Source of the DNA: a virus
IMG/VR virus record: IMGVR_UViG_3300005319_000012
Coordinates: 1-5,920 of that record
Length of the DNA: 5,920 bases
Strand: one strand, 5' to 3'
Below are positions 1-5,920 of the stretch, piece by piece. Position 1 is the first letter of the stretch. Each line of letters starts with the position of its first letter. The notes under the pieces are model-generated. The model was not told the origin of the DNA and made no database searches. It was given only the letters and a program-made list of their open reading frames with translations. A program made the position numbers and the translations under genes.

Positions 1-547
1 CCATTACGCCTCTTCCTGCTAGTGTTCCTAGTGGTTGTTCTCCGTCTCCTGCTTCTGCGTTGCTTATTACTTCTTGAAACACTAATTCTTTTATTAGTCC
101 GCCCATGTACATTGGTGTTGTTGCTAATGTTACTCTGTCGTGCATGTAAACTGCTCTTTGCCAATCATCGTATGTCCCTCCGCTTATTGCAATTCTATTT
201 AGCATTTCATATACTTTTGTTGCTAATTGAAATGTGTCGATTGAAAAATTTCCATCTGATGTGTCTATTGCAGTTATTGCGTTTATTCCGTTTTCTCCAT
301 CAATCCATTCCGTTTGCATCCAATTATTAAATAAATCGCTTTGATACGTTTTTATTGCTAATCCCTCTTGTGTTGTTAGTTTTGCCCACGTTTTATTTGT
401 TCCGCTCCCTAGTTCTAGTAGTGGTAGGTTGTATGGTTCTAAGTTTGTGTTTTTACTTATTGTGAATGGAGACGATTGTTTTGTGTATATTAATATGTTT
501 TCCCTCATGTCATCTAAGTTTTTTAGTGGGAATGTTTTTATTTTTGG
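1..547. repeat. Terminal redundancy, copy 1. Identical to 5374-5920. This is the signature of a circular 5373-nt genome written past its junction, not a biological repeat.
   Basis: Position 1 (ccattacgcctcttcctgct...) aligns to 5374, and the last bases of the window (...ttatttttgg) align to 538-547. The ORF-track entries 22..330 and 5296..5703 end in the same peptide, and 330+5373=5703. Every stretch I compared by eye was identical. Confidence 0.95.
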
Positions 548-1435
548 TGGTCTTGCTTCTTTTGCATCTATGTAGCTCCAATTCATTATTTTAATTGCTG
601 AAAACTCTCTTTTTGCACTTCCTAGTGTTGTTTCTGTTGGGTATTCTGATATTGTTTCATAAATATCTGTTAGTCTTGCTGTTACCCCTGTTGATAGTCT
701 TACAGATATTTCACTTATGTCTGGTCTTTCCCCTGTGAATCTTACATACATGGCTGTTCCTCTTGCAATTGTGAATTCTGCATTTCCTGTGTTTTTTGGT
801 ATTGTTGTGAATGTTCCTCCTGAATCACCGATAATTTCAGTTACTGTTTCTACTATTGCTCTTCCGTGTATTACTGCGCCTTTTTCTTCTTGTTTGTTTG
901 CATAGTAATTTTTGTATGTGTCCCAATATGCTAGGTATGTTACTGCATTAAATTCTCTTAATACTTTTCCATCTACTCCGCTTCCTCCGCCTACGCCTCT
1001 TATATTTAAATAGCTAAATATGCAGCTTGGGTTTATTTGTTGATTGTCGGGGTCTAGTCTTTTGTTTATTGCGTTTGATACTATTTCTATTTGCGGTAGT
1101 TTTACCGTATCCATGTGGTTTCCTATTCCTAGTTTATTGTTGTGTAGTTGTCCTTGATATAGCCTTATTGGTGCTAAGAATATGTCCGCTTGTACTTTAT
1201 AGCTTCCGAATAGAGGTCCTATTGTTGGATGTGTTTTGATGTCAATATCTAGGTTTATATCGAATGTATCGCCGGGTAAGGCCACTTCTGTCATGAATGG
1301 TACTAGTGTTCCAGCGGCCATTGTACTTCTCCATATATAACCTAAATCATGGGTCGATCTTTCGTAGTTTTTTAATTCTACTTTCATTTTTTTTCCTGAC
1401 CCTAGTCTTTCTCCTCCTAATGTTACTTTTTGCAT
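1..1435 (-). CDS. VP1: Major capsid protein (Microviridae VP1 / F-like), N-terminal ~478 codons. The gene continues across the circle junction into 5373->4841. The joined gene is 1968 nt, 655 aa.
   Basis: My own minus-strand translation from the ATG at 1435-1433 is stop-free down to position 1: MQKVTLGGERLGSGKKMKVELKNYERSTHDLGYIWRSTMAAGTLVPFMTEVALPGDTFDINLDIDIKTHPTIGPLFGSYKVQADIFLAPIRLY...NAVTYLAYWDTYKNYYANKQEE... It is missing from the ORF track because its stop lies beyond the window edge. It is in frame with the 346-aa ORF: M at 5881 equals 508, and 1435-508=927, which is 309 codons. The RSTHDL, LPGDTF, GSYK and YWDxYKNYY motifs match what I remember of microvirus capsid proteins. An alternative start is the ATG at 1387 (MKVELKNY...). 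Confidence 0.9.
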   Translation of the reverse strand, partial: MQKVTLGGERLGSGKKMKVELKNYERSTHDLGYIWRSTMAAGTLVPFMTEVALPGDTFDINLDIDIKTHPTIGPLFGSYKVQADIFLAPIRLYQGQLHNNKLGIGNHMDTVKLPQIEIVSNAINKRLDPDNQQINPSCIFSYLNIRGVGGGSGVDGKVLREFNAVTYLAYWDTYKNYYANKQEEKGAVIHGRAIVETVTEIIGDSGGTFTTIPKNTGNAEFTIARGTAMYVRFTGERPDISEISVRLSTGVTARLTDIYETISEYPTETTLGSAKREFSAIKIMNWSYIDAKEARPPKIKTFPLKNLDDMRENILIYTKQSSPFTISKNTNLEPYNLPLLELGSGTNKTWAKLTTQEGLAIKTYQSDLFNNWMQTEWIDGENGINAITAIDTSDGNFSIDTFQLATKVYEMLNRIAISGGTYDDWQRAVYMHDRVTLATTPMYMGGLIKELVFQEVISNAEAGDGEQPLGTLAGRGVM

Positions 1436-1440
1436 TTTTT

Positions 1441-1719
1441 TTATTTATTAAATTTTCTACTTTCTTCTACCATTACCCCTATTATTGTTATCATGAACTT
1501 CCAATTTATTCCACTTACCATTTTTTCTAGTTCGTGTAGGTTTTCGTGTTCGTCTGTTATTTGGTATTTTCCCATTGTTAAGAACCATCCTCCGTCTTTT
1601 TTTACCGCTACGAATGACCCCTCTGCTAATTCTACTCTTTCAATCAGACTCCCAGAGTCTTGTTTGCCTGATTCTTTCGCATTCGTTAATGTGTTTAACA
1701 ATTCCGTATTTTTCCCCAT
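1441..1719 (-). CDS. Hypothetical 92-aa protein immediately upstream of the capsid gene. By position only it is analogous to a scaffolding-type gene. The C-terminus has a short hydrophobic stretch (WKFMITIIGVMV).
   Basis: ATG at 1719-1717 (cat on the + strand) and TAA at 1441-1443. Codons after the overlap region follow the genome-wide A-ending habit. The stop is joined to the capsid start by TAA-AAAAA-ATG. Confidence 0.7.
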   Translation of the reverse strand: MGKNTELLNTLTNAKESGKQDSGSLIERVELAEGSFVAVKKDGGWFLTMGKYQITDEHENLHELEKMVSGINWKFMITIIGVMVEESRKFNK

Positions 1720-1855
1720 TTGTATATTCTTTTATTTCTGATTTACTATTTGTTTTTTTTGTTATGTATTTTCTTTCTTTGAGGCTTTTACTTATAACCT
1801 CTCCTGTTTCTATGTCTACGTACGTTGTTGTTGCGTACCATTTCATTTTAGCCAT
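1640..1855 (-). CDS. Hypothetical 71-aa basic protein (MAKMKWYATTTYVDIETGEVI...). It overlaps the next gene by 80 nt in another frame.
   Basis: ATG at 1855-1853 and TGA at 1640-1642, the only non-TAA stop among the genes I call. A-ending codon use is strong in the non-overlapping part. Confidence 0.65.
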   Translation of the reverse strand: MAKMKWYATTTYVDIETGEVISKSLKERKYITKKTNSKSEIKEYTNGEKYGIVKHINECERIRQTRLWESD

Positions 1856-1875
1856 CTCTGATCATTTTTTTTTAT

Positions 1876-1965
1876 TTAATCTAATTTGTTGTATACTTCT
1901 AGTAGTATTCCTACTGTTATTATTATTAGCACTATTCCTGTTACTAATGACGCTAGTTCTGTCAT
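1876..1965 (-). CDS. Mini-protein of 29 aa with a single predicted transmembrane helix: MTELASLVTGIVLIIITVGILLEVYNKLD.
   Basis: Hand translation. The ATG at 1965-1963 directly abuts the TAA of the preceding mini-ORF (GAT TAA ATG). The stop TAA is at 1876-1878. It has about 20 consecutive hydrophobic residues and A-ending codons throughout (ACA GAA CTA ... GGA ATA CTA CTA GAA GTA). It falls below the ORF-track length cutoff. Confidence 0.6.
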   Translation of the reverse strand: MTELASLVTGIVLIIITVGILLEVYNKLD

Positions 1966-2049
1966 TTAATCTTTTCTTGTGTTTATTAATGTGTATAGTA
2001 TTATTGTTATTCCTACTATTCCTATTACTCCCAGTATTGTCGCTTCCAT
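1966..2049 (-). CDS. Mini-protein of 27 aa with a single predicted transmembrane helix: MEATILGVIGIVGITIILYTLINTRKD.
   Basis: Hand translation. The ATG at 2049-2047 sits 5 A residues after the TAA of the upstream gene (TAA-AAAAA-ATG). The stop TAA is at 1966-1968. It has a hydrophobic core, a basic tail and A-ending codons. Together with its neighbour it fills an otherwise unexplained 198-nt gap in a compact genome. Confidence 0.6.
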   Translation of the reverse strand: MEATILGVIGIVGITIILYTLINTRKD

Positions 2050-2054
2050 TTTTT

Positions 2055-2267
2055 TTATAGGTTAAAGTAGTTTTCTCTTATTCTCATTAGGATAGCTTGT
2101 AGTTCGTCTCTATCTTCTTCACTTATGAAGTGCGTTGAGTCTATTGCGTTTACTGCTCCTACAAATCTTTTTATGTCTGCTGCTGTTCCTTTTTTGTTGA
2201 AATTTTTACTTTCTTTTTTAGTTTTAGCTCCTTGAGTTTCTACATTTTTATTTTCGTTATTTTCCAT
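2055..2267 (-). CDS. Hypothetical 70-aa protein with a Lys-rich N-terminus (MENNENKNVETQGAKTKKESKNFNKKG...). By position it is the first gene after rep (VP5-like position in gokushoviruses). Function unknown.
   Basis: ORF track 2055..2273. I checked the listed start: 2271-2273 is caa on the + strand, so it is TTG, not ATG. The first ATG is two codons downstream at 2267-2265. The stop TAA is at 2055-2057. Confidence 0.7.
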   Translation of the reverse strand: MENNENKNVETQGAKTKKESKNFNKKGTAADIKRFVGAVNAIDSTHFISEEDRDELQAILMRIRENYFNL

Positions 2268-2270
2268 ATT

Positions 2271-2301
2271 CAAATATAGGTATTATTTTTATATTTCCAA
2301 A
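2271..2301 (-). promoter_or_regulatory. Candidate promoter in the rep / 70-aa-gene intergenic spacer. It reads TTTG-N19-TATATTTG (Bacteroides-type -33/-7 consensus) and also TTGGAA-N16-TATATT (sigma70-like).
   Basis: The minus strand reads ...AAAATTTGGAAATATAAAAATAATACCTATATTTGAATATGGAA. TTTG is at 2301-2298 and TATATTTG at 2278-2271, with exactly 19 nt between them. These T-rich motifs sit in a strand that is otherwise very T-poor. Caveat: the predicted start site would fall at or next to the ATG at 2267, implying a leaderless or very short leader. Confidence 0.4.
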
Positions 2302-2317
2302 TTTTTTTTCATTTTTT

Positions 2318-3361
2318 TTAATCCCATTCTTTTGACGGTTGGATTAACTGCTCTCTGCCCTCGGGGGGGCAGTCCCCCGCCTGCGGAGCAATCTTTTCTT
2401 TTATTATCCTTTCTTCTATTTTTAGCATTCTTCTTTGATTTTCGTACTCCTTCTTGTTCCAGTCTATTGTATCGTCTCCGTACCCTAATCTTTTGTTTTT
2501 TTCTCTGTAGTATTCTAGTAGTTTGTAGTATTCTTCTTCTCCTTCTGTTACGTCTACTTTTTCTCCCATTACCCACCTTTCTTCCTTATCTAATTTCATT
2601 AGCCATAGTTTTTCTCTTTCTTCATCTGTGTATATTTTATTTCTCCAATATATTGGCATTGCTATTTTATGCCCTGATCTCGTTGTGTATGTTTCGTTTG
2701 TGTCTTTTCCTTTGAATTTATTTTTATTGCTATCTATTCTCTCTATATACCCTGCCCCTATTCCTGCACTTGTTAGTATTTTTGCTGTGTAGTGTTCGTG
2801 ATCTTTGTCTTGTTTTGTTACGTATTTTGTTAAGTAGTTTACTGTTTTTTCGCTTACGTAGTTTTCTTTTTTTTCTCCCTTTCCTTTCCACACGAACCCG
2901 TATTGCCAGTGTTTTTCTACTTCGTCTAAGCTTTCGTTCGTCCATACTATTCCGTGTAAGTGTAGGTTTTCCGTTCCGTTATGCCCGAGTTCTGTTATTA
3001 ACCAGTGTCTTAGGCTTTTTTTATATTTCTTTCTCCATCTTTCTAGAAATCTTCTTACTGCTAGTGTAGCTATTGCGTTGTCTAAATTATACCCTTCTAG
3101 TGTTTCTATTTCTTTACTTAGGTCTGTTATACTTTCGTTACTGAATGTTAGCGTTATGAATTTTCCGTTTTTGTTATGCCTTACATCTTCTAGTAGTCTT
3201 ACTTGCCATTCTCTCGATTTTTGTTTTCTGCATTCTATGCATTTTCCGCATCCTACTGGTACTGCTAATACTCTTTTATCAGAAACGGCAGGTATTACCC
3301 CGCCGTTCTTTTTGGTTTCTCCGTATTTTCTGTTCCTTATTAATTTTGGATATAGGCACAT
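2318..3361 (-). CDS. VP4: Replication initiation protein (Microviridae VP4 / phiX174 gpA-like HUH rolling-circle endonuclease), 347 aa.
   Basis: ORF track. It has the N-terminal MCLYPKLI and CGKCIECR cysteine motif. RCR motif 1 is FITLTF (res 68-73). Motif 2 (HUH) is HLHGIVW (res 134-140). Motif 3 is YLTKYVTK (res 176-183), with two Tyr spaced like YVAKYVNK of phiX174 gpA. The ATG at 3361 lies 1 nt after the VP2 stop (TAA-A-ATG). Confidence 0.93.
   Translation of the reverse strand: MCLYPKLIRNRKYGETKKNGGVIPAVSDKRVLAVPVGCGKCIECRKQKSREWQVRLLEDVRHNKNGKFITLTFSNESITDLSKEIETLEGYNLDNAIATLAVRRFLERWRKKYKKSLRHWLITELGHNGTENLHLHGIVWTNESLDEVEKHWQYGFVWKGKGEKKENYVSEKTVNYLTKYVTKQDKDHEHYTAKILTSAGIGAGYIERIDSNKNKFKGKDTNETYTTRSGHKIAMPIYWRNKIYTDEEREKLWLMKLDKEERWVMGEKVDVTEGEEEYYKLLEYYREKNKRLGYGDDTIDWNKKEYENQRRMLKIEERIIKEKIAPQAGDCPPEGREQLIQPSKEWD
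2350..2389 (-). other. GC-rich (32/40 G+C) imperfect stem-loop with a C7 homopolymer, embedded in the last ~25 codons of rep. Candidate replication, priming or packaging signal.
   Basis: The coding strand reads GCTCCGCAGGCGGGGGACTGCCCCCCCGAGGGCAGAGAGC. Possible pairings are GCTC/GAGC at the ends, GGGGG/CCCCC around ACTG, and CTGCCC/GGGCAG. The flanking sequence is AT-rich, and the local codons (CCG CAG GCG GGG GAC TGC CCC CCC GAG GGC) break the A-ending rule. Confidence 0.6.
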
Positions 3362-3362
3362 T

Positions 3363-4199
3363 TTATTGCTCTCCCACTCTTTTTAGTTGTTTGTTTCTGT
3401 CGCTTTTGTTTATTTGGAATATTGCTTCTATAGCATCATCTATTGTTCTTCCTGCTACGTTCATTAAGTTAGGATACGCTTTGTCCATTTCTGCTCTAAA
3501 TTTTTCTATTCTTAGCTTTTGTTCGTTTTGGTCTAATCCTTTCCATCCTTGAGCTACTTGCGCTGCCATTTGTTTTATTCTTTCTTTGTCTACTTCTATT
3601 CCGACTTTTTTAGCGTCATTTTCTATTTCCGCTCCTATGCTTTCTGCTTTTATTCTTGTTAATCTATCTTCTAACCCTCTGTTTGCTTCTTGTGACTCTG
3701 CTGCTGTTTTTGTGAATTTTTCCCCTTCTGTTAGTGTTTGTGCATTTTTTAAGTCTCTTTCGCTTCCTGCTACTTCTACTCCTGCTTTCTTGTTTGCTGT
3801 GTCTGCTTCTATGTTCTCTTTTTGTGCGTTCATTAATGCCATTTGCATTCCCATCCCCATCTCTCCTCCTCCTGTCGGTGCTGCTCCTCCGCTTACCGCT
3901 CCCCCTGCTACTCCTCCCATTGTTGCTCCTCCTGTTCCTCCCATTCCGTATAGTAGTGCTGGGTTTAGTCCTGCTTTTTTTAAGTGTTCTACTTGTGCTC
4001 CGTAGTTTGTTTTGTTCCACGAATCTAATTGTAATTCGTGTGCATTGCTTGCCAGTTCTTTCTGTCCTTTTATTTGTAATCCTTGCAGTTTTTCTTGCAT
4101 TTGGTATTGTCTTTGGTCGTTGTATTTTCCTAGCGCCATTCCTAGCGCTGATCCTATTATTGCCGACCCTGCTCCTTCTGCTAATTTTCCTAGTCCCAT
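3363..4199 (-). CDS. VP2: Minor capsid / DNA pilot protein (Microviridae VP2, functional analogue of phiX174 H), 278 aa.
   Basis: ORF track. It carries the KKAGLNPALLYG motif (3945-3974), which I recognise as typical of microvirus VP2. The N-terminal segment is glycine-zipper-like (GAGSAIIGSALGMALG). A Gly-rich linker spans res 85-118. The C-terminal half is long, charged and coiled-coil-like. Its position directly upstream of VP4 also fits. Confidence 0.85.
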   Translation of the reverse strand: MGLGKLAEGAGSAIIGSALGMALGKYNDQRQYQMQEKLQGLQIKGQKELASNAHELQLDSWNKTNYGAQVEHLKKAGLNPALLYGMGGTGGATMGGVAGGAVSGGAAPTGGGEMGMGMQMALMNAQKENIEADTANKKAGVEVAGSERDLKNAQTLTEGEKFTKTAAESQEANRGLEDRLTRIKAESIGAEIENDAKKVGIEVDKERIKQMAAQVAQGWKGLDQNEQKLRIEKFRAEMDKAYPNLMNVAGRTIDDAIEAIFQINKSDRNKQLKRVGEQ

Positions 4200-4200
4200 T

Positions 4201-4284
4201 TTATTTTACGCTTATTGTTATGTTGTAATTTATTTTATTTCCTGATATTGATTCCTCTAGCATTGTTCTTAATTTTCTTTCCAT
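4201..4284 (-). CDS. Possible 27-aa ORF (MERKLRTMLEESISGNKINYNITISVK) abutting the VP2 start. It is the ATG-initiated tail of a 73-codon stop-free, coding-like frame (4425->4204).
   Basis: Hand translation. ATG at 4284-4282, TAA at 4201-4203, then A, then the VP2 ATG. This is the same TAA-A-ATG junction as VP2/VP4. A-ending codons are present. It is short and the T-poor strand makes open frames cheap, so support is weak. Confidence 0.3.
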   Translation of the reverse strand: MERKLRTMLEESISGNKINYNITISVK

Positions 4285-4434
4285 CGTCTTTAATGCTTTT
4301 CTTATCGTTCTTTCTTCAATATAGGTTAACTTTCTTCTTTTCTCTTTGCTTTCTTTTATTATTTTTGAGTTAGTTTCTGTGTCTTTTAGACTTATTTTGT
4401 AATTCTCTATTTTTTCGCTTCTTTTTTATTAAAA

Positions 4435-4485
4435 AAAGAGTGGTACACTTAGTTCATAATATAGAACACATGCGTACCACTCTTT
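4435..4485 (-). terminator. Hairpin with a 12-bp perfect stem and 27-nt loop, followed by a T-run on the coding strand. Candidate intrinsic terminator of the capsid operon and/or origin hairpin.
   Basis: The minus strand reads TAA CACGTT AAAGAGTGGTAC-GCATGTGTTCTATATTATGAACTAAGT-GTACCACTCTTT TTTTAATAAAAAAG. The arms are 4474-4485 and 4435-4446. The hairpin starts 6 nt after the stop of the 111-aa ORF. The loop has an inner GTTC/GAAC mini-stem around TATATTAT. The loop is large for a textbook terminator. Confidence 0.5.
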
Positions 4486-4491
4486 AACGTG

Positions 4492-4827
4492 TTAATTTTC
4501 AGTTCCTTGTGTTGACTCGGCTCCGCCGTTTTTATCTTTGTTTATATTGATTATTTTTGCTTCTTTTTCAGCCATTCTGTCTGCTCTTTTTGCTGTGTGT
4601 GTTTTACTTACTTTGTCCATTGCGTCGATCGCGACTTCGAATCTATCCGTTCTTACGTTGTATCCTGCTAATACTCCTTCTTTCCTTTCTGTATATATCA
4701 TCGGAGCTCCGTCTGTTATTGGCTCTTTGTTGTTTACAACTCTTTCGATTTTTTGTTCTATAGTTTCTCCCTCTAACGAGTCGTTTTCGTTTATTGAGGT
4801 TTCTTGCATTTTGTTTTGTTTGTACAT
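4492..4827 (-). CDS. Small 111-aa protein downstream of the capsid gene, with an acidic N-terminus and the motif IYTERKEGVLAGYNVRTDRFEVAIDAMD. Function unassigned, possibly scaffolding or assembly.
   Basis: ORF track. The ATG at 4827-4825 follows the VP1 stop by 13 nt (TAA AAAAAAGAAAATA ATG). TAA at 4492-4494. Genome-typical codon use. The IYTER...RTDRF-type motif seems familiar from small ORFs of uncultured microviruses, but I cannot verify that here. Confidence 0.75.
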   Translation of the reverse strand: MYKQNKMQETSINENDSLEGETIEQKIERVVNNKEPITDGAPMIYTERKEGVLAGYNVRTDRFEVAIDAMDKVSKTHTAKRADRMAEKEAKIININKDKNGGAESTQGTEN

Positions 4828-4840
4828 TATTTTCTTTTTT

Positions 4841-5920
4841 TTATAGATTTGGCATTATTTTTGCACTCATTTTTCTTCTTGCTGTTATGTCTACTCCTAT
4901 TTGTGCCCAAAAGTTTTGTGCGTCTCTACTTGTTTGTGCGAATATGTGATTGAATTTTACTGGGTCTATATATGTTGTTAGGTCTTTTATTTGTCCTGTT
5001 GCTCCATCCATTTCGTATCTTCTGTTTAGAGTCATGAACATTTCATTGTCTGCTATGGCAAAATTCCCTCTTGTTTGGTTTACATTTGTCATATAGTTTA
5101 GCCATGCTGGTTGTTTCCCTGCACTTCTGAATTCTATTTTTGTTGGATTCCCCATTGTTATGTTTGTGTCAAATGCTGCCATTTGGTCGGTTATTAGGTC
5201 TTGGAATCCTATTTGATCTAACGCTGGTTTATGGAAATCGTCCATTGTTTTTAGATTTGTGTCCCATTTGTTTCCTTGACTGTAGTCGACTCTAGGTGTT
5301 AGGCTTATTATTCCCATTATGTAGCTCGGTTCGTCTACTTTTATTGTCACGTGGCCTCCTTTTCTTTTTCCTGCCATTACGCCTCTTCCTGCTAGTGTTC
5401 CTAGTGGTTGTTCTCCGTCTCCTGCTTCTGCGTTGCTTATTACTTCTTGAAACACTAATTCTTTTATTAGTCCGCCCATGTACATTGGTGTTGTTGCTAA
5501 TGTTACTCTGTCGTGCATGTAAACTGCTCTTTGCCAATCATCGTATGTCCCTCCGCTTATTGCAATTCTATTTAGCATTTCATATACTTTTGTTGCTAAT
5601 TGAAATGTGTCGATTGAAAAATTTCCATCTGATGTGTCTATTGCAGTTATTGCGTTTATTCCGTTTTCTCCATCAATCCATTCCGTTTGCATCCAATTAT
5701 TAAATAAATCGCTTTGATACGTTTTTATTGCTAATCCCTCTTGTGTTGTTAGTTTTGCCCACGTTTTATTTGTTCCGCTCCCTAGTTCTAGTAGTGGTAG
5801 GTTGTATGGTTCTAAGTTTGTGTTTTTACTTATTGTGAATGGAGACGATTGTTTTGTGTATATTAATATGTTTTCCCTCATGTCATCTAAGTTTTTTAGT
5901 GGGAATGTTTTTATTTTTGG
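4841..5920 (-). CDS. VP1: Major capsid protein VP1, C-terminal part (stop TAA at 4841-4843). It is open upstream to the window end. 5374-5920 duplicates 1-547.
   Basis: ORF track 4841..5881 (346 aa, MRENILIYTKQ...AKIMPNL). The frame stays open to 5920 and is contiguous with the 1..1435 segment through the circular junction. This is the largest ORF of the genome, as expected for the capsid gene. Confidence 0.9.
   Translation of the reverse strand, partial: PKIKTFPLKNLDDMRENILIYTKQSSPFTISKNTNLEPYNLPLLELGSGTNKTWAKLTTQEGLAIKTYQSDLFNNWMQTEWIDGENGINAITAIDTSDGNFSIDTFQLATKVYEMLNRIAISGGTYDDWQRAVYMHDRVTLATTPMYMGGLIKELVFQEVISNAEAGDGEQPLGTLAGRGVMAGKRKGGHVTIKVDEPSYIMGIISLTPRVDYSQGNKWDTNLKTMDDFHKPALDQIGFQDLITDQMAAFDTNITMGNPTKIEFRSAGKQPAWLNYMTNVNQTRGNFAIADNEMFMTLNRRYEMDGATGQIKDLTTYIDPVKFNHIFAQTSRDAQNFWAQIGVDITARRKMSAKIMPNL
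5374..5920. repeat. Terminal redundancy, copy 2 (identical to 1-547).
   Basis: Same comparison as for 1-547. The offset is 5373. Confidence 0.95.

Follow-up and report, generated by a model that had tools for sequence, protein, structure and literature searches.

The window considered here, a stretch of 5,920 nucleotides (nt) covering positions 1 to 5,920 of the virus record IMGVR_UViG_3300005319_000012 in IMG/VR, carries on its minus strand two very small open reading frames (ORFs), p27 and p29, which look like genes for membrane peptides of 27 and 29 amino acids (aa). p27 runs from the ATG at 2049 to the TAA at 1966 and has the sequence MEATILGVIGIVGITIILYTLINTRKD, while p29 runs from the ATG at 1965 to the TAA at 1876 and has the sequence MTELASLVTGIVLIIITVGILLEVYNKLD. 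Both were found at the coordinates and with the sequences proposed in an initial annotation of this DNA, which had also rightly placed the interval between VP4 (3361-2318) and VP1 (start 1435). The two share one frame with a TAA alone between them (GAT TAA ATG), the ATG of p29 abutting the stop of p27. Directly before p27 and directly after VP4 lies a 72-aa accessory gene (2055..2273, minus; 70 aa when read from the ATG at 2267), and p29 is followed by a 71-aa family gene (1640..1855, minus) with a YVDxETGE motif, giving the order 72-aa gene, p27, p29, 71-aa gene. VP4, the replication initiator (2318..3361, minus; PHROG 942, E = 7e-27; PF23343, E = 1e-10), forms the upstream boundary of this slot, and the 71-aa family gene forms its conserved downstream boundary.

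The peptides are short hydrophobic segments with little else. p27 has an acidic N-terminus, a predicted transmembrane (TM) core at residues 4-22 and an RKD tail. The C-terminal tails, INTRKD in p27 and EVYNKLD in p29, carry net charges of +1 and -1, and the whole peptides carry 0 and -2, respectively, with about 19 consecutive hydrophobic residues; neither contains proline, and the tails comprise 5-7 residues. In 17-residue Kyte-Doolittle peak hydrophobicity (KD17), p29 (2.78) and p27 (2.52) rank as the top two, the next coding-strand ORF reaching 1.56, and the best KD17 windows of all three coding-strand frames fall inside p27 or p29. The best 19-residue sums on the Hessa scale, with the scale values of the 2005 paper, are -2.0 kcal/mol for p27 and -3.2 kcal/mol for p29, which predicts efficient membrane insertion of both. 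The claim that such hydrophobicity exceeds chance was borne out by simulation: an ATG ORF that has at least 25 aa and KD17 >= 2.5 arose in none of 2,000 first-order Markov genomes and in none of 20,000 shuffles keeping the interval's own composition.

In codon structure and spacing, the pair is gene-like. As the initial annotation had stated, codon position 2 is T-rich in p27 and p29 (46-53% T, compared with 19-31% in the other genes), and codon position 3 is about 80% A. Their match to the preferred synonymous codons ATA, ACA, GGA, GTA, CTA and TTA is at least as good as that of the other small genes. The two ORFs tile a gap of 199 nt with spacers of 5, 0 and 20 nt, the other junctions measuring 1-13 nt, and the coding density, earlier put at about 94%, came to 92.8% with the mini-ORFs and 89.6% without them. 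The same junction, TAAAAAAA-ATG, precedes both p27 and VP1, as had been pointed out, and A-rich contexts without a Shine-Dalgarno (SD) sequence also precede VP2, VP4 and a 111-aa gene. An A8 run (ctaTAAAAAAAATG, 2050-2057) bridges the stop of the 72-aa gene and the start of p27. The proposal that p27 and p29 are diverged tandem duplicates stood less well: G10-I11-V12 and I14 are indeed common to both (8/27 identities), but a fixed-register permutation gave p = 0.03-0.07 and a local-alignment shuffle p = 0.5, so that paralogy is statistically weak and is not confirmed.

Other readings of the interval were also considered. Its fold as single-stranded DNA is unremarkable (z = -1.4), no structural RNA of Rfam matches the window at E <= 1, and sigma-70-type promoter and terminator matches occur at or below shuffle expectation. 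The plus-strand ORFs over the interval (e.g., 1575-2060, 161 aa) were rejected: they match no family, the identified genes are all on the minus strand, and the T-richness of the plus strand gives rise to numerous long chance ORFs rich in L and F. A stop-free minus-strand frame from 2077 to 1865 has no start codon and an N/R/K-rich translation of low complexity, and it was judged non-coding. The best reading of the sequence is that p27 and p29 are real genes for single-pass membrane peptides, which would be translated and inserted into the membrane.

The setting of the pair was compared across about 140-145 related loci gathered by VP4-based searches. These relatives vary in what lies between VP4 and the 71-aa family gene, and where a large gene is present there, it is a cell-wall hydrolase. 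For instance, Peptidase_M15_3 is found in the slot of L002 (E = 1.6e-21), L008 (E = 1e-10) and L120 (E = 1.4e-11); hedgehog/LAS-like zinc peptidases of about 100 aa also occur (L021, E = 3.5e-5, a value that exceeds the Pfam cut-off), matching hedgehog entries of the PDB at about 6e-5. Other relatives carry DUF5675 (E about 1e-19 to 6e-25), described as a C82-peptidase-like candidate lysin (2026 preprint), and Dysgonomonas prophages have Amidase_2 and M15_3 directly before VP1. Similarly, phiHBP1 (L143, PV598014), the first cultured Bacteroides microvirus, which is plaque-forming and lytic on Bacteroides fragilis (PMC13064476), has a Peptidase_M15_3 gene at 84-488 (E = 4e-17) between VP4 and VP1 that is annotated as hypothetical. 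A 38-aa ORF lies between this gene and VP1; the coding strand of phiHBP1 is T-rich, so hydrophobic small ORFs there are not diagnostic. Acquired peptidases, proposed to be endolysins, have been reported between VP4 and VP1 in Microviridae (PMC3394797, PMC9239249). The slot hydrolases have no hydrophobic segment (maximum KD below 1.5), and their access to the wall would therefore depend on a partner that permeabilises the membrane.

Such a partner may be provided by mini-ORFs. The initial annotation had suggested a search for syntenic hydrophobic ORFs in the VP4-to-VP1 interval of relatives, and mini-ORFs of 27-40 aa were indeed found there, though none is a recognisable homologue of p27 or p29. 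They were counted in a census of 82 unique VP4-to-VP1 slots, in which the thresholds were KD17 >= 2.0 and E <= 0.01 for hidden Markov models (HMMs), and in which two families, A and B, were defined in this analysis. Hydrophobic mini-ORFs were present in 16 of the 17 slots bearing a hydrolase (M15_3, hedgehog-like LAS or DUF5675); 14 of these 16 are loci other than L033 and L034, whose mini-ORFs are embedded two-TM ORFs outside families A and B. One slot held a hydrolase only, eight held a mini-ORF only and 57 held neither. The association of hydrolase and mini-ORF is strong (Fisher odds ratio = 114, p = 3e-10) in counts that ignore shared ancestry and are uncorrected for kinship.

Family A follows M15_3 and is exemplified by MDNFPIQEIATAVMALISYILGRISKKIEKK, with an acidic N-terminus, a basic tail and the pattern M[ED]xFPxxE..TAV.A..SY..G.., whereas family B follows LAS-type or DUF5675 genes and is exemplified by MKKFNWKRLIVEVLKIAVAFLAGDQIGI, with a basic N-terminus, an amphipathic helix, an NW motif and a ..G...G.Q[LV] end. 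In hydrolase-bearing genomes of both families, the mini-ORF comes directly after the hydrolase, often with an ATGA-type overlap. A profile search of 7,208 coding-strand stop-to-stop segments recovered family A from 7 unique genomes and family B from 13, with all matches inside the VP4-VP1 slot (family A at L002:4536-4628, L008:5255-5353, L120:3148-3243 and L133:3718-3810; family B at L021:2409-2495, L046:4269-4364 and L138:3135-3221; and others). The pN/pS of the mini-ORFs in close pairs is 0.16-0.33, from small counts, and these values point consistently to purifying selection on real genes. Furthermore, strongly hydrophobic ATG mini-ORFs number 9 in 61 kb of slot and 6 in 303 kb outside it, an enrichment of ~7-fold (binomial p = 2e-4; 2.5e-3 without the window). 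The mini-ORFs of families A and B are not annotated in public records, and GenBank annotations of related genomes leave the slot empty. The literature library searched contains no description of genes for small membrane peptides between VP4 and VP1 in non-phiX microviruses, nor of their pairing with the acquired peptidases. Small single-TM phage lysis proteins and holins are already known, while the mini-peptides of this slot are apparently undescribed, and the broader pattern in the relatives is arguably more important than p27 and p29 themselves.

Searches of all the window's ORFs against Pfam, PHROGs and NCBIfam detected no muralytic enzyme, and this arrangement has parallels among the relatives. 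A mini-ORF without a hydrolase occurs in seven of them, five of which are among the nearest to the window: L133 carries family A, while L134, L135, L138 and L141 carry family B. Their VP4 proteins are 69-75% identical to that of the window, and they make up 5 of the 11 surveyed relatives with VP4 at least 68% identical. Of the relatives that have both a complete slot and a homologue of the 72-aa protein, L133 (VP4 74%) is the closest. After its VP4 come a 67-aa gene and then a 30-aa family A peptide at p27's position, the overall order being 72-aa family gene, family A, further genes and 71-aa family gene. The window's 72-aa protein is homologous to this 67-aa protein (L133-67; shuffle p = 0) and belongs to a 72-aa family whose gene comes before the mini-ORF in several relatives. 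Mutually similar proteins in L043, L050 and L005 resemble the 72-aa protein by eye only, and the likeness of L009, L135 and L138 to the 72-aa family was likewise judged by eye only. In L009 (VP4 63%), a truncated 72-aa-like ORF is followed by a very hydrophobic 32-aa peptide, MDCNSTIEIMIVINLVIILAGIVGLVIVSKHE (L009-32), which overlaps the 71-aa family gene by 8 nt. Family A lies between either the 72-aa family gene or a hydrolase on one side and the 71-aa family gene on the other, and p27 and p29 occupy the corresponding position.

Sequence comparison did not extend these parallels to p27 and p29. Neither peptide matched Pfam, PHROGs or NCBIfam, holin families included, and the PADLOC models for defence and superinfection exclusion gave nothing at E <= 1. 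BLASTP against phiX174 E (NC_001422) produced no alignment at E <= 100. When p27, p29 and L009-32 were compared by tblastn with the fetched loci (about 145 in all), only matches with E > 0.6 appeared; the best for p29 was a non-significant one (E = 1.3, 'ELIEVFNKV') in L123:1529-1789, an 86-aa TM protein of a D. macrotermitis prophage, and it counts as a lead rather than as evidence. This protein reads '...IVGLIGLIPELIEVFNKV' where the C-terminal half of p29 reads '...GILLEVYNKL', and it occupies an equivalent position upstream of a 71-aa-like gene. The family A HMM had no match in the window at E <= 0.01 (shuffle p = 0.15-0.32; against L133-30, 0.2-0.48), nor did the family B HMM (shuffle p = 0.29-0.46), the family B charge pattern, with its basic N-terminus, being opposite. 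Tested against families A and B, L133-30 and each other, p27, p29 and L009-32 gave p = 0.10-0.5, compared with p <= 0.013 for true members. Families A and B resemble p27 and p29 in their slot, their 27-40 aa size class and their tight coupling to neighbours, and family A, whose L133 member lies at p27's position, also shares with p27 an acidic N-terminus, one hydrophobic helix and a basic tail. They differ in having no detectable sequence similarity, in being single rather than tandem and in being much less hydrophobic. In addition, 16 of the 20 census genomes with family A or B pair the peptide with a hydrolase, while the window has none. What links p27 and p29 to the mini-ORFs of the relatives is where they lie and how they are built; common descent is not demonstrable.

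The explanation preferred here, and offered tentatively, is that p27 and p29 are real small membrane-peptide genes in the lysis slot of their lineage and most likely act as holin-like membrane-damaging effectors. The pairing of families A and B with signal-less hydrolases argues for a holin-like role of those families, and it is by positional analogy to them that the role is given to p27 and p29, which would be the best candidates for the otherwise missing lysis machinery of this virus. The genes would be transcribed late, together with the capsid genes, from a promoter just after VP4, and they would be translated from SD-less, A-rich starts, p29 probably being begun by ribosomes that end on p27. 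The peptides would then insert into the inner membrane, accumulate and compromise it by permeabilisation or depolarisation in the manner of holins or type I toxins. In relatives, such damage would free the signal-less hydrolase encoded beside the mini-ORF, and in the window, which has no hydrolase, host autolysins may complete the breakdown of the wall. The initial annotation had offered a lysis module as one candidate; membrane-peptide genes in a slot that holds hydrolases and mini-ORFs in relatives agree with it, but no homology to E, to holins or to the relatives' mini-ORFs was found.

Several points weigh against a holin-like role. Neither 5.8 billion called proteins nor about 145 related loci yielded a homologue of p27 or p29, and the pair shows no similarity to family A, family B, L009-32 or L133-30 (shuffle p = 0.13-0.5), which makes the argument one of positional analogy only. 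On the Hessa scale, p27 and p29 score -2 to -3.2, compared with +2.4 for family A and +4.6 to +6.1 for family B, and being so much more hydrophobic they may be a different kind of peptide. The C-terminal flank of p29, with a net charge of -1, differs from the basic tail that holins usually have. When no endolysin is present, a holin as a rule kills Gram-negative cells without lysing them. Moreover, 57 of the 82 related slots have neither hydrolase nor mini-ORF, so the cassette is dispensable, and the census behind these figures ignores relatedness and uses self-defined families. Among ssRNA phages, 178 of 293 candidate ORFs with a predicted transmembrane domain (TMD) gave no phenotype (PMC7693330).

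The absence of a hydrolase, the limit on holins in Gram-negative cells and the different sequence type together make a mechanism like that of single-gene lysis (Sgl) proteins a serious rival, if on balance a rather unlikely one. In such an amurin-type action, one or both peptides would serve as a protein antibiotic that blocks an enzyme of the lipid II pathway (MraY, MurJ or similar), and growing cells would lyse at the septum without a phage muralytic enzyme. This agrees with free-standing single TM helices comparable in size to LysM (37 residues; PMC12506998), with the lack of relatives, as expected from the rapid de novo turnover of Sgl genes (PMC7693330), with a membrane-integral character far beyond that of the hydrolase-associated family A and B peptides, and with the occurrence of the other two strongly hydrophobic, family-unassigned peptides (L009, L130) in hydrolase-free slots as well. 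It is countered by the lack of similarity to E, the lack of a TM proline or an extramembrane domain, the presence of two genes where an Sgl needs only one, and the location of the pair where family A and B peptides accompany signal-less hydrolases in a holin-like manner. A further reading, for its part unlikely, has p27 and p29 as genuine membrane peptides serving a purpose other than lysis, such as excluding superinfection, tethering replication or assembly to the membrane, or modulating a host transporter or sensor. Nothing found speaks positively for such a role, nor for the membrane remodelling or superinfection exclusion suggested in the initial annotation. All evidence for their being genes fits this equally, most relatives (57/82) manage without a mini-ORF, as for an accessory function, and a TMD alone does not predict lysis (PMC7693330); yet no PADLOC defence or exclusion family or other library matched, and the positional association is with wall hydrolases and nothing else.

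A non-coding reading, in which incidental ORFs and hydrophobicity lie in an untranslated spacer or decaying remnant, appears distinctly improbable. ATG ORFs of at least 25 aa arise about 11 times per simulated genome, so length alone is common, and gene callers skip p27 and p29, for which no homologue was found; the hydrophobicity was never reproduced in simulations, however, and the two ORFs tile the gap with gene-like spacers, show a strong 3-periodic composition, compete with no alternative structural signal (DNA fold z = -1.4, no Rfam match) and have analogous mini-ORFs in the same slot under purifying selection. There is very little probability that p27 and p29 form a single two-TM hairpin protein of ~57 aa, like a class II holin, by readthrough of the TAA, or represent a recently split gene. 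The shared frame with one stop, the charged, loop-like junction NTRKD/MTELA and the occurrence of 57-59-aa two-TM ORFs in this slot in L033, L034 and L040 would fit, but TAA is the normal stop of 8/9 genes, the stop is identical in two independent assemblies, p29 has its own ATG, and the 56-aa in-frame concatenation has no homologue among 5.8 billion called proteins. TAA readthrough is not known in these hosts. Small size and a position upstream of the capsid gene would also suit small DNA-binding or packaging proteins like J of phiX174; J-type proteins are strongly basic (PMC9865509), while p27 and p29 have net charges of 0 and -2 and about 19 consecutive hydrophobic residues, and on composition such a role is effectively refuted.

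Several known systems help to place the pair. In phiX174 E, whose gene is overprinted in the scaffold gene and whose action depends on SlyD, the N-terminal TMD has an essential proline (P21) and is joined to a C-terminal cytoplasmic domain. E (91 aa, a MraY inhibitor) and levivirus LysM (37 aa, a MurJ inhibitor) are single-gene lysis proteins (PMC7693330; PMC12506998). The window shares with such systems a small phage genome without a muralytic enzyme and short proteins with one TM helix that are orphans and are missed by callers. It differs in that p27 and p29 lack a TM proline and a soluble domain, stand alone instead of being overprinted, and are two genes rather than one. The holins of tailed phages (one-TMD, two-TMD and the pinholin S21-68) are, like the slot mini-ORFs, small membrane proteins of a lysis cassette; the signal-less hydrolases next to the relatives' mini-ORFs add to the likeness, while the lack of an endolysin in the window and of a holin-family match set the pair apart. 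The C-terminal tails give a mixed picture, that of p27 being charged and that of p29 not being basic. The smallest known holins have about 60-70 aa, and p27 and p29 are less than half that size. Type I toxins such as TisB (29 aa), Ibs (18-19 aa), ShoB (26 aa) and Hok (about 50 aa) are membrane peptides that depolarise the membrane, Hok forming ghost cells. They resemble p27 and p29 in size, in having a single very hydrophobic helix and in the effect to be expected, and they differ in being chromosomal or plasmid-borne and controlled by antisense RNA, a context not seen here, and in showing no similarity in the libraries searched. The M15_3 peptidase of Microviridae occupies the same slot and is presumed to serve the same lysis process, though it is an enzyme of ~130 aa that is absent from the window; according to Roux et al. 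(2012), an 'unknown' ORF lies next to some of the peptidase genes, and the adjoining mini-ORFs are not described there (PMC3394797).

In line with the initial annotation, non-phiX microviruses have no recognised E-type lysis gene (PMC7062461, PMC3394797), and for their exit from the cell only sporadically acquired peptidases have been proposed (PMC7062461, PMC3394797, PMC9239249). These viruses are among the most abundant ssDNA phages of the gut and the environment. A possible, more speculative generalisation is that Bacteroidales-associated microviruses keep a dedicated lysis slot whose core is a membrane peptide of 27-40 aa, a mini-holin or minimal lysis peptide below the size of any described holin, with the hydrolase optional, and in which rapid turnover has produced at least four unrelated types (A, B, L009-32 and p27/p29). 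The window would then represent a hydrolase-free two-peptide system that lyses a Gram-negative Bacteroidota host alone, with p27 and p29 possibly forming a heteromeric pair or a pair of effector and regulator. If this were true, the long-standing gap in microvirus lysis would become testable with a few synthetic genes, and thousands of microvirus genomes would be under-annotated, as callers and GenBank skip the mini-ORFs and their 60-70-aa neighbours. The peptides would also be the smallest known holin-like or Sgl-like proteins and a source of leads against the Bacteroidota membrane or wall. In DNA phages, such a slot would further parallel the rapid de novo origin of lysis genes reported for ssRNA phages (PMC7693330).

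The window represents a circular genome of 5,373 nt whose termini overlap by 547 nt. All recognisable genes lie on the minus strand, which contains 48% A and 17% T. The capsid gene VP1 starts at 1435, after the 92-aa gene, wraps around the circle and ends at 4841; it is followed by the 111-aa gene (4827-4492, minus) and the pilot gene VP2 (4199-3363, minus). The 92-aa family gene (1441..1719, minus) shares 80 nt with the 71-aa gene and stops 5 nt short of VP1. The 71-aa gene, the only one that stops with TGA, belongs to a family that anchored 23 further loci, and the 71-aa and 92-aa families are conserved just upstream of VP1 and widespread in the lineage without an annotated function; they are left unannotated in GenBank relatives (e.g., MK765638). 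The upstream 70-aa protein finds only itself among called proteins and nothing in IMG/VR, and it belongs to no annotated family. An independent Logan assembly of run SRR6464545 is identical to the window over 5,403 nt, and its gene caller skipped p27, p29 and the 71-aa gene.

A lookup of the exact VP4 sequence led to one Logan contig, identical to the window, and a whole-genome megablast against GenBank phages gave a sole match of 245 nt at 77%. The nearest VP4 in the whole collection is 74-75% identical to that of the window. In a VP4 profile scan, relatives with VP4 36-54% identical were found inside large Bacteroidales contigs, the hosts including the cultured Dysgonomonas sp. 521 and D. 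macrotermitis DSM 27370 as well as metagenome-assembled genomes of Bacteroides, Paludibacteraceae, Phocaeicola and Rikenellaceae. The lineage of the window therefore appears to be Alpavirinae-like and Bacteroidota-associated, a host assignment drawn from relatives only 36-54% identical in VP4, and the SD-less starts are consistent with it.

A promoter-like element of the Bacteroides type, TTTG-N19-TATATTTG, lies at 2271..2301 on the minus strand, between VP4 and the 72-aa gene. Its TAnnTTTG -7 element (2278-2271), which we take to be the Bacteroides promoter consensus, is the only one on the coding strand, with TTTG located 19 nt upstream, and the full motif is expected 0.002 times per simulated genome. 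In 69 relatives, the full motif has seven matches, four of them just after VP4. The putative promoter would start a transcript spanning the 72-aa gene, p27, p29, the 71-aa gene, the 92-aa gene and VP1, and the ATG at 2267 would be almost leaderless from it. The largest non-coding stretch of the window, 4200-4491, lies between the 111-aa gene and VP2; it measures 292 nt, has the lowest GC content (~26%) and could be the site of the origin or of another promoter. It contains a stop-free frame of 74 codons with a late ATG only (27 aa, 4284-4201), and its counterpart in L133 is about 110 nt long.

Additional small ORFs were observed in the slot of other relatives. In L033:810-983, L034:2379-2552 and L040:357-536, the two-TM ORF of 57-59 aa is overprinted in another frame inside the DUF5675 gene, two of the three starting with MKRKSKK, and it may be a class-II-holin-like gene; these loci also carry an amphipathic ORF of 40-41 aa (MKRKILELLVEKLVP...) just before the 71-aa family gene. 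Lipoprotein-like signals (..AALSC.., ..ITIGC.., ..LTSC..) mark ORFs of 67-77 aa that lie just upstream of the 71-aa family gene or VP1 in L039:48-254, L041:141-374 and L124:2371-2574, and they may be candidate outer-membrane-directed, spanin-like components of the slot. In the prophage loci L121, L122, L123, L124, L128, L129 and L131, VP1 lies upstream of VP4, which places the integration junction inside the VP4-to-VP1 slot, and several of these prophages encode TM proteins of 36-87 aa immediately following VP4, together with a hydrolase immediately preceding VP1.

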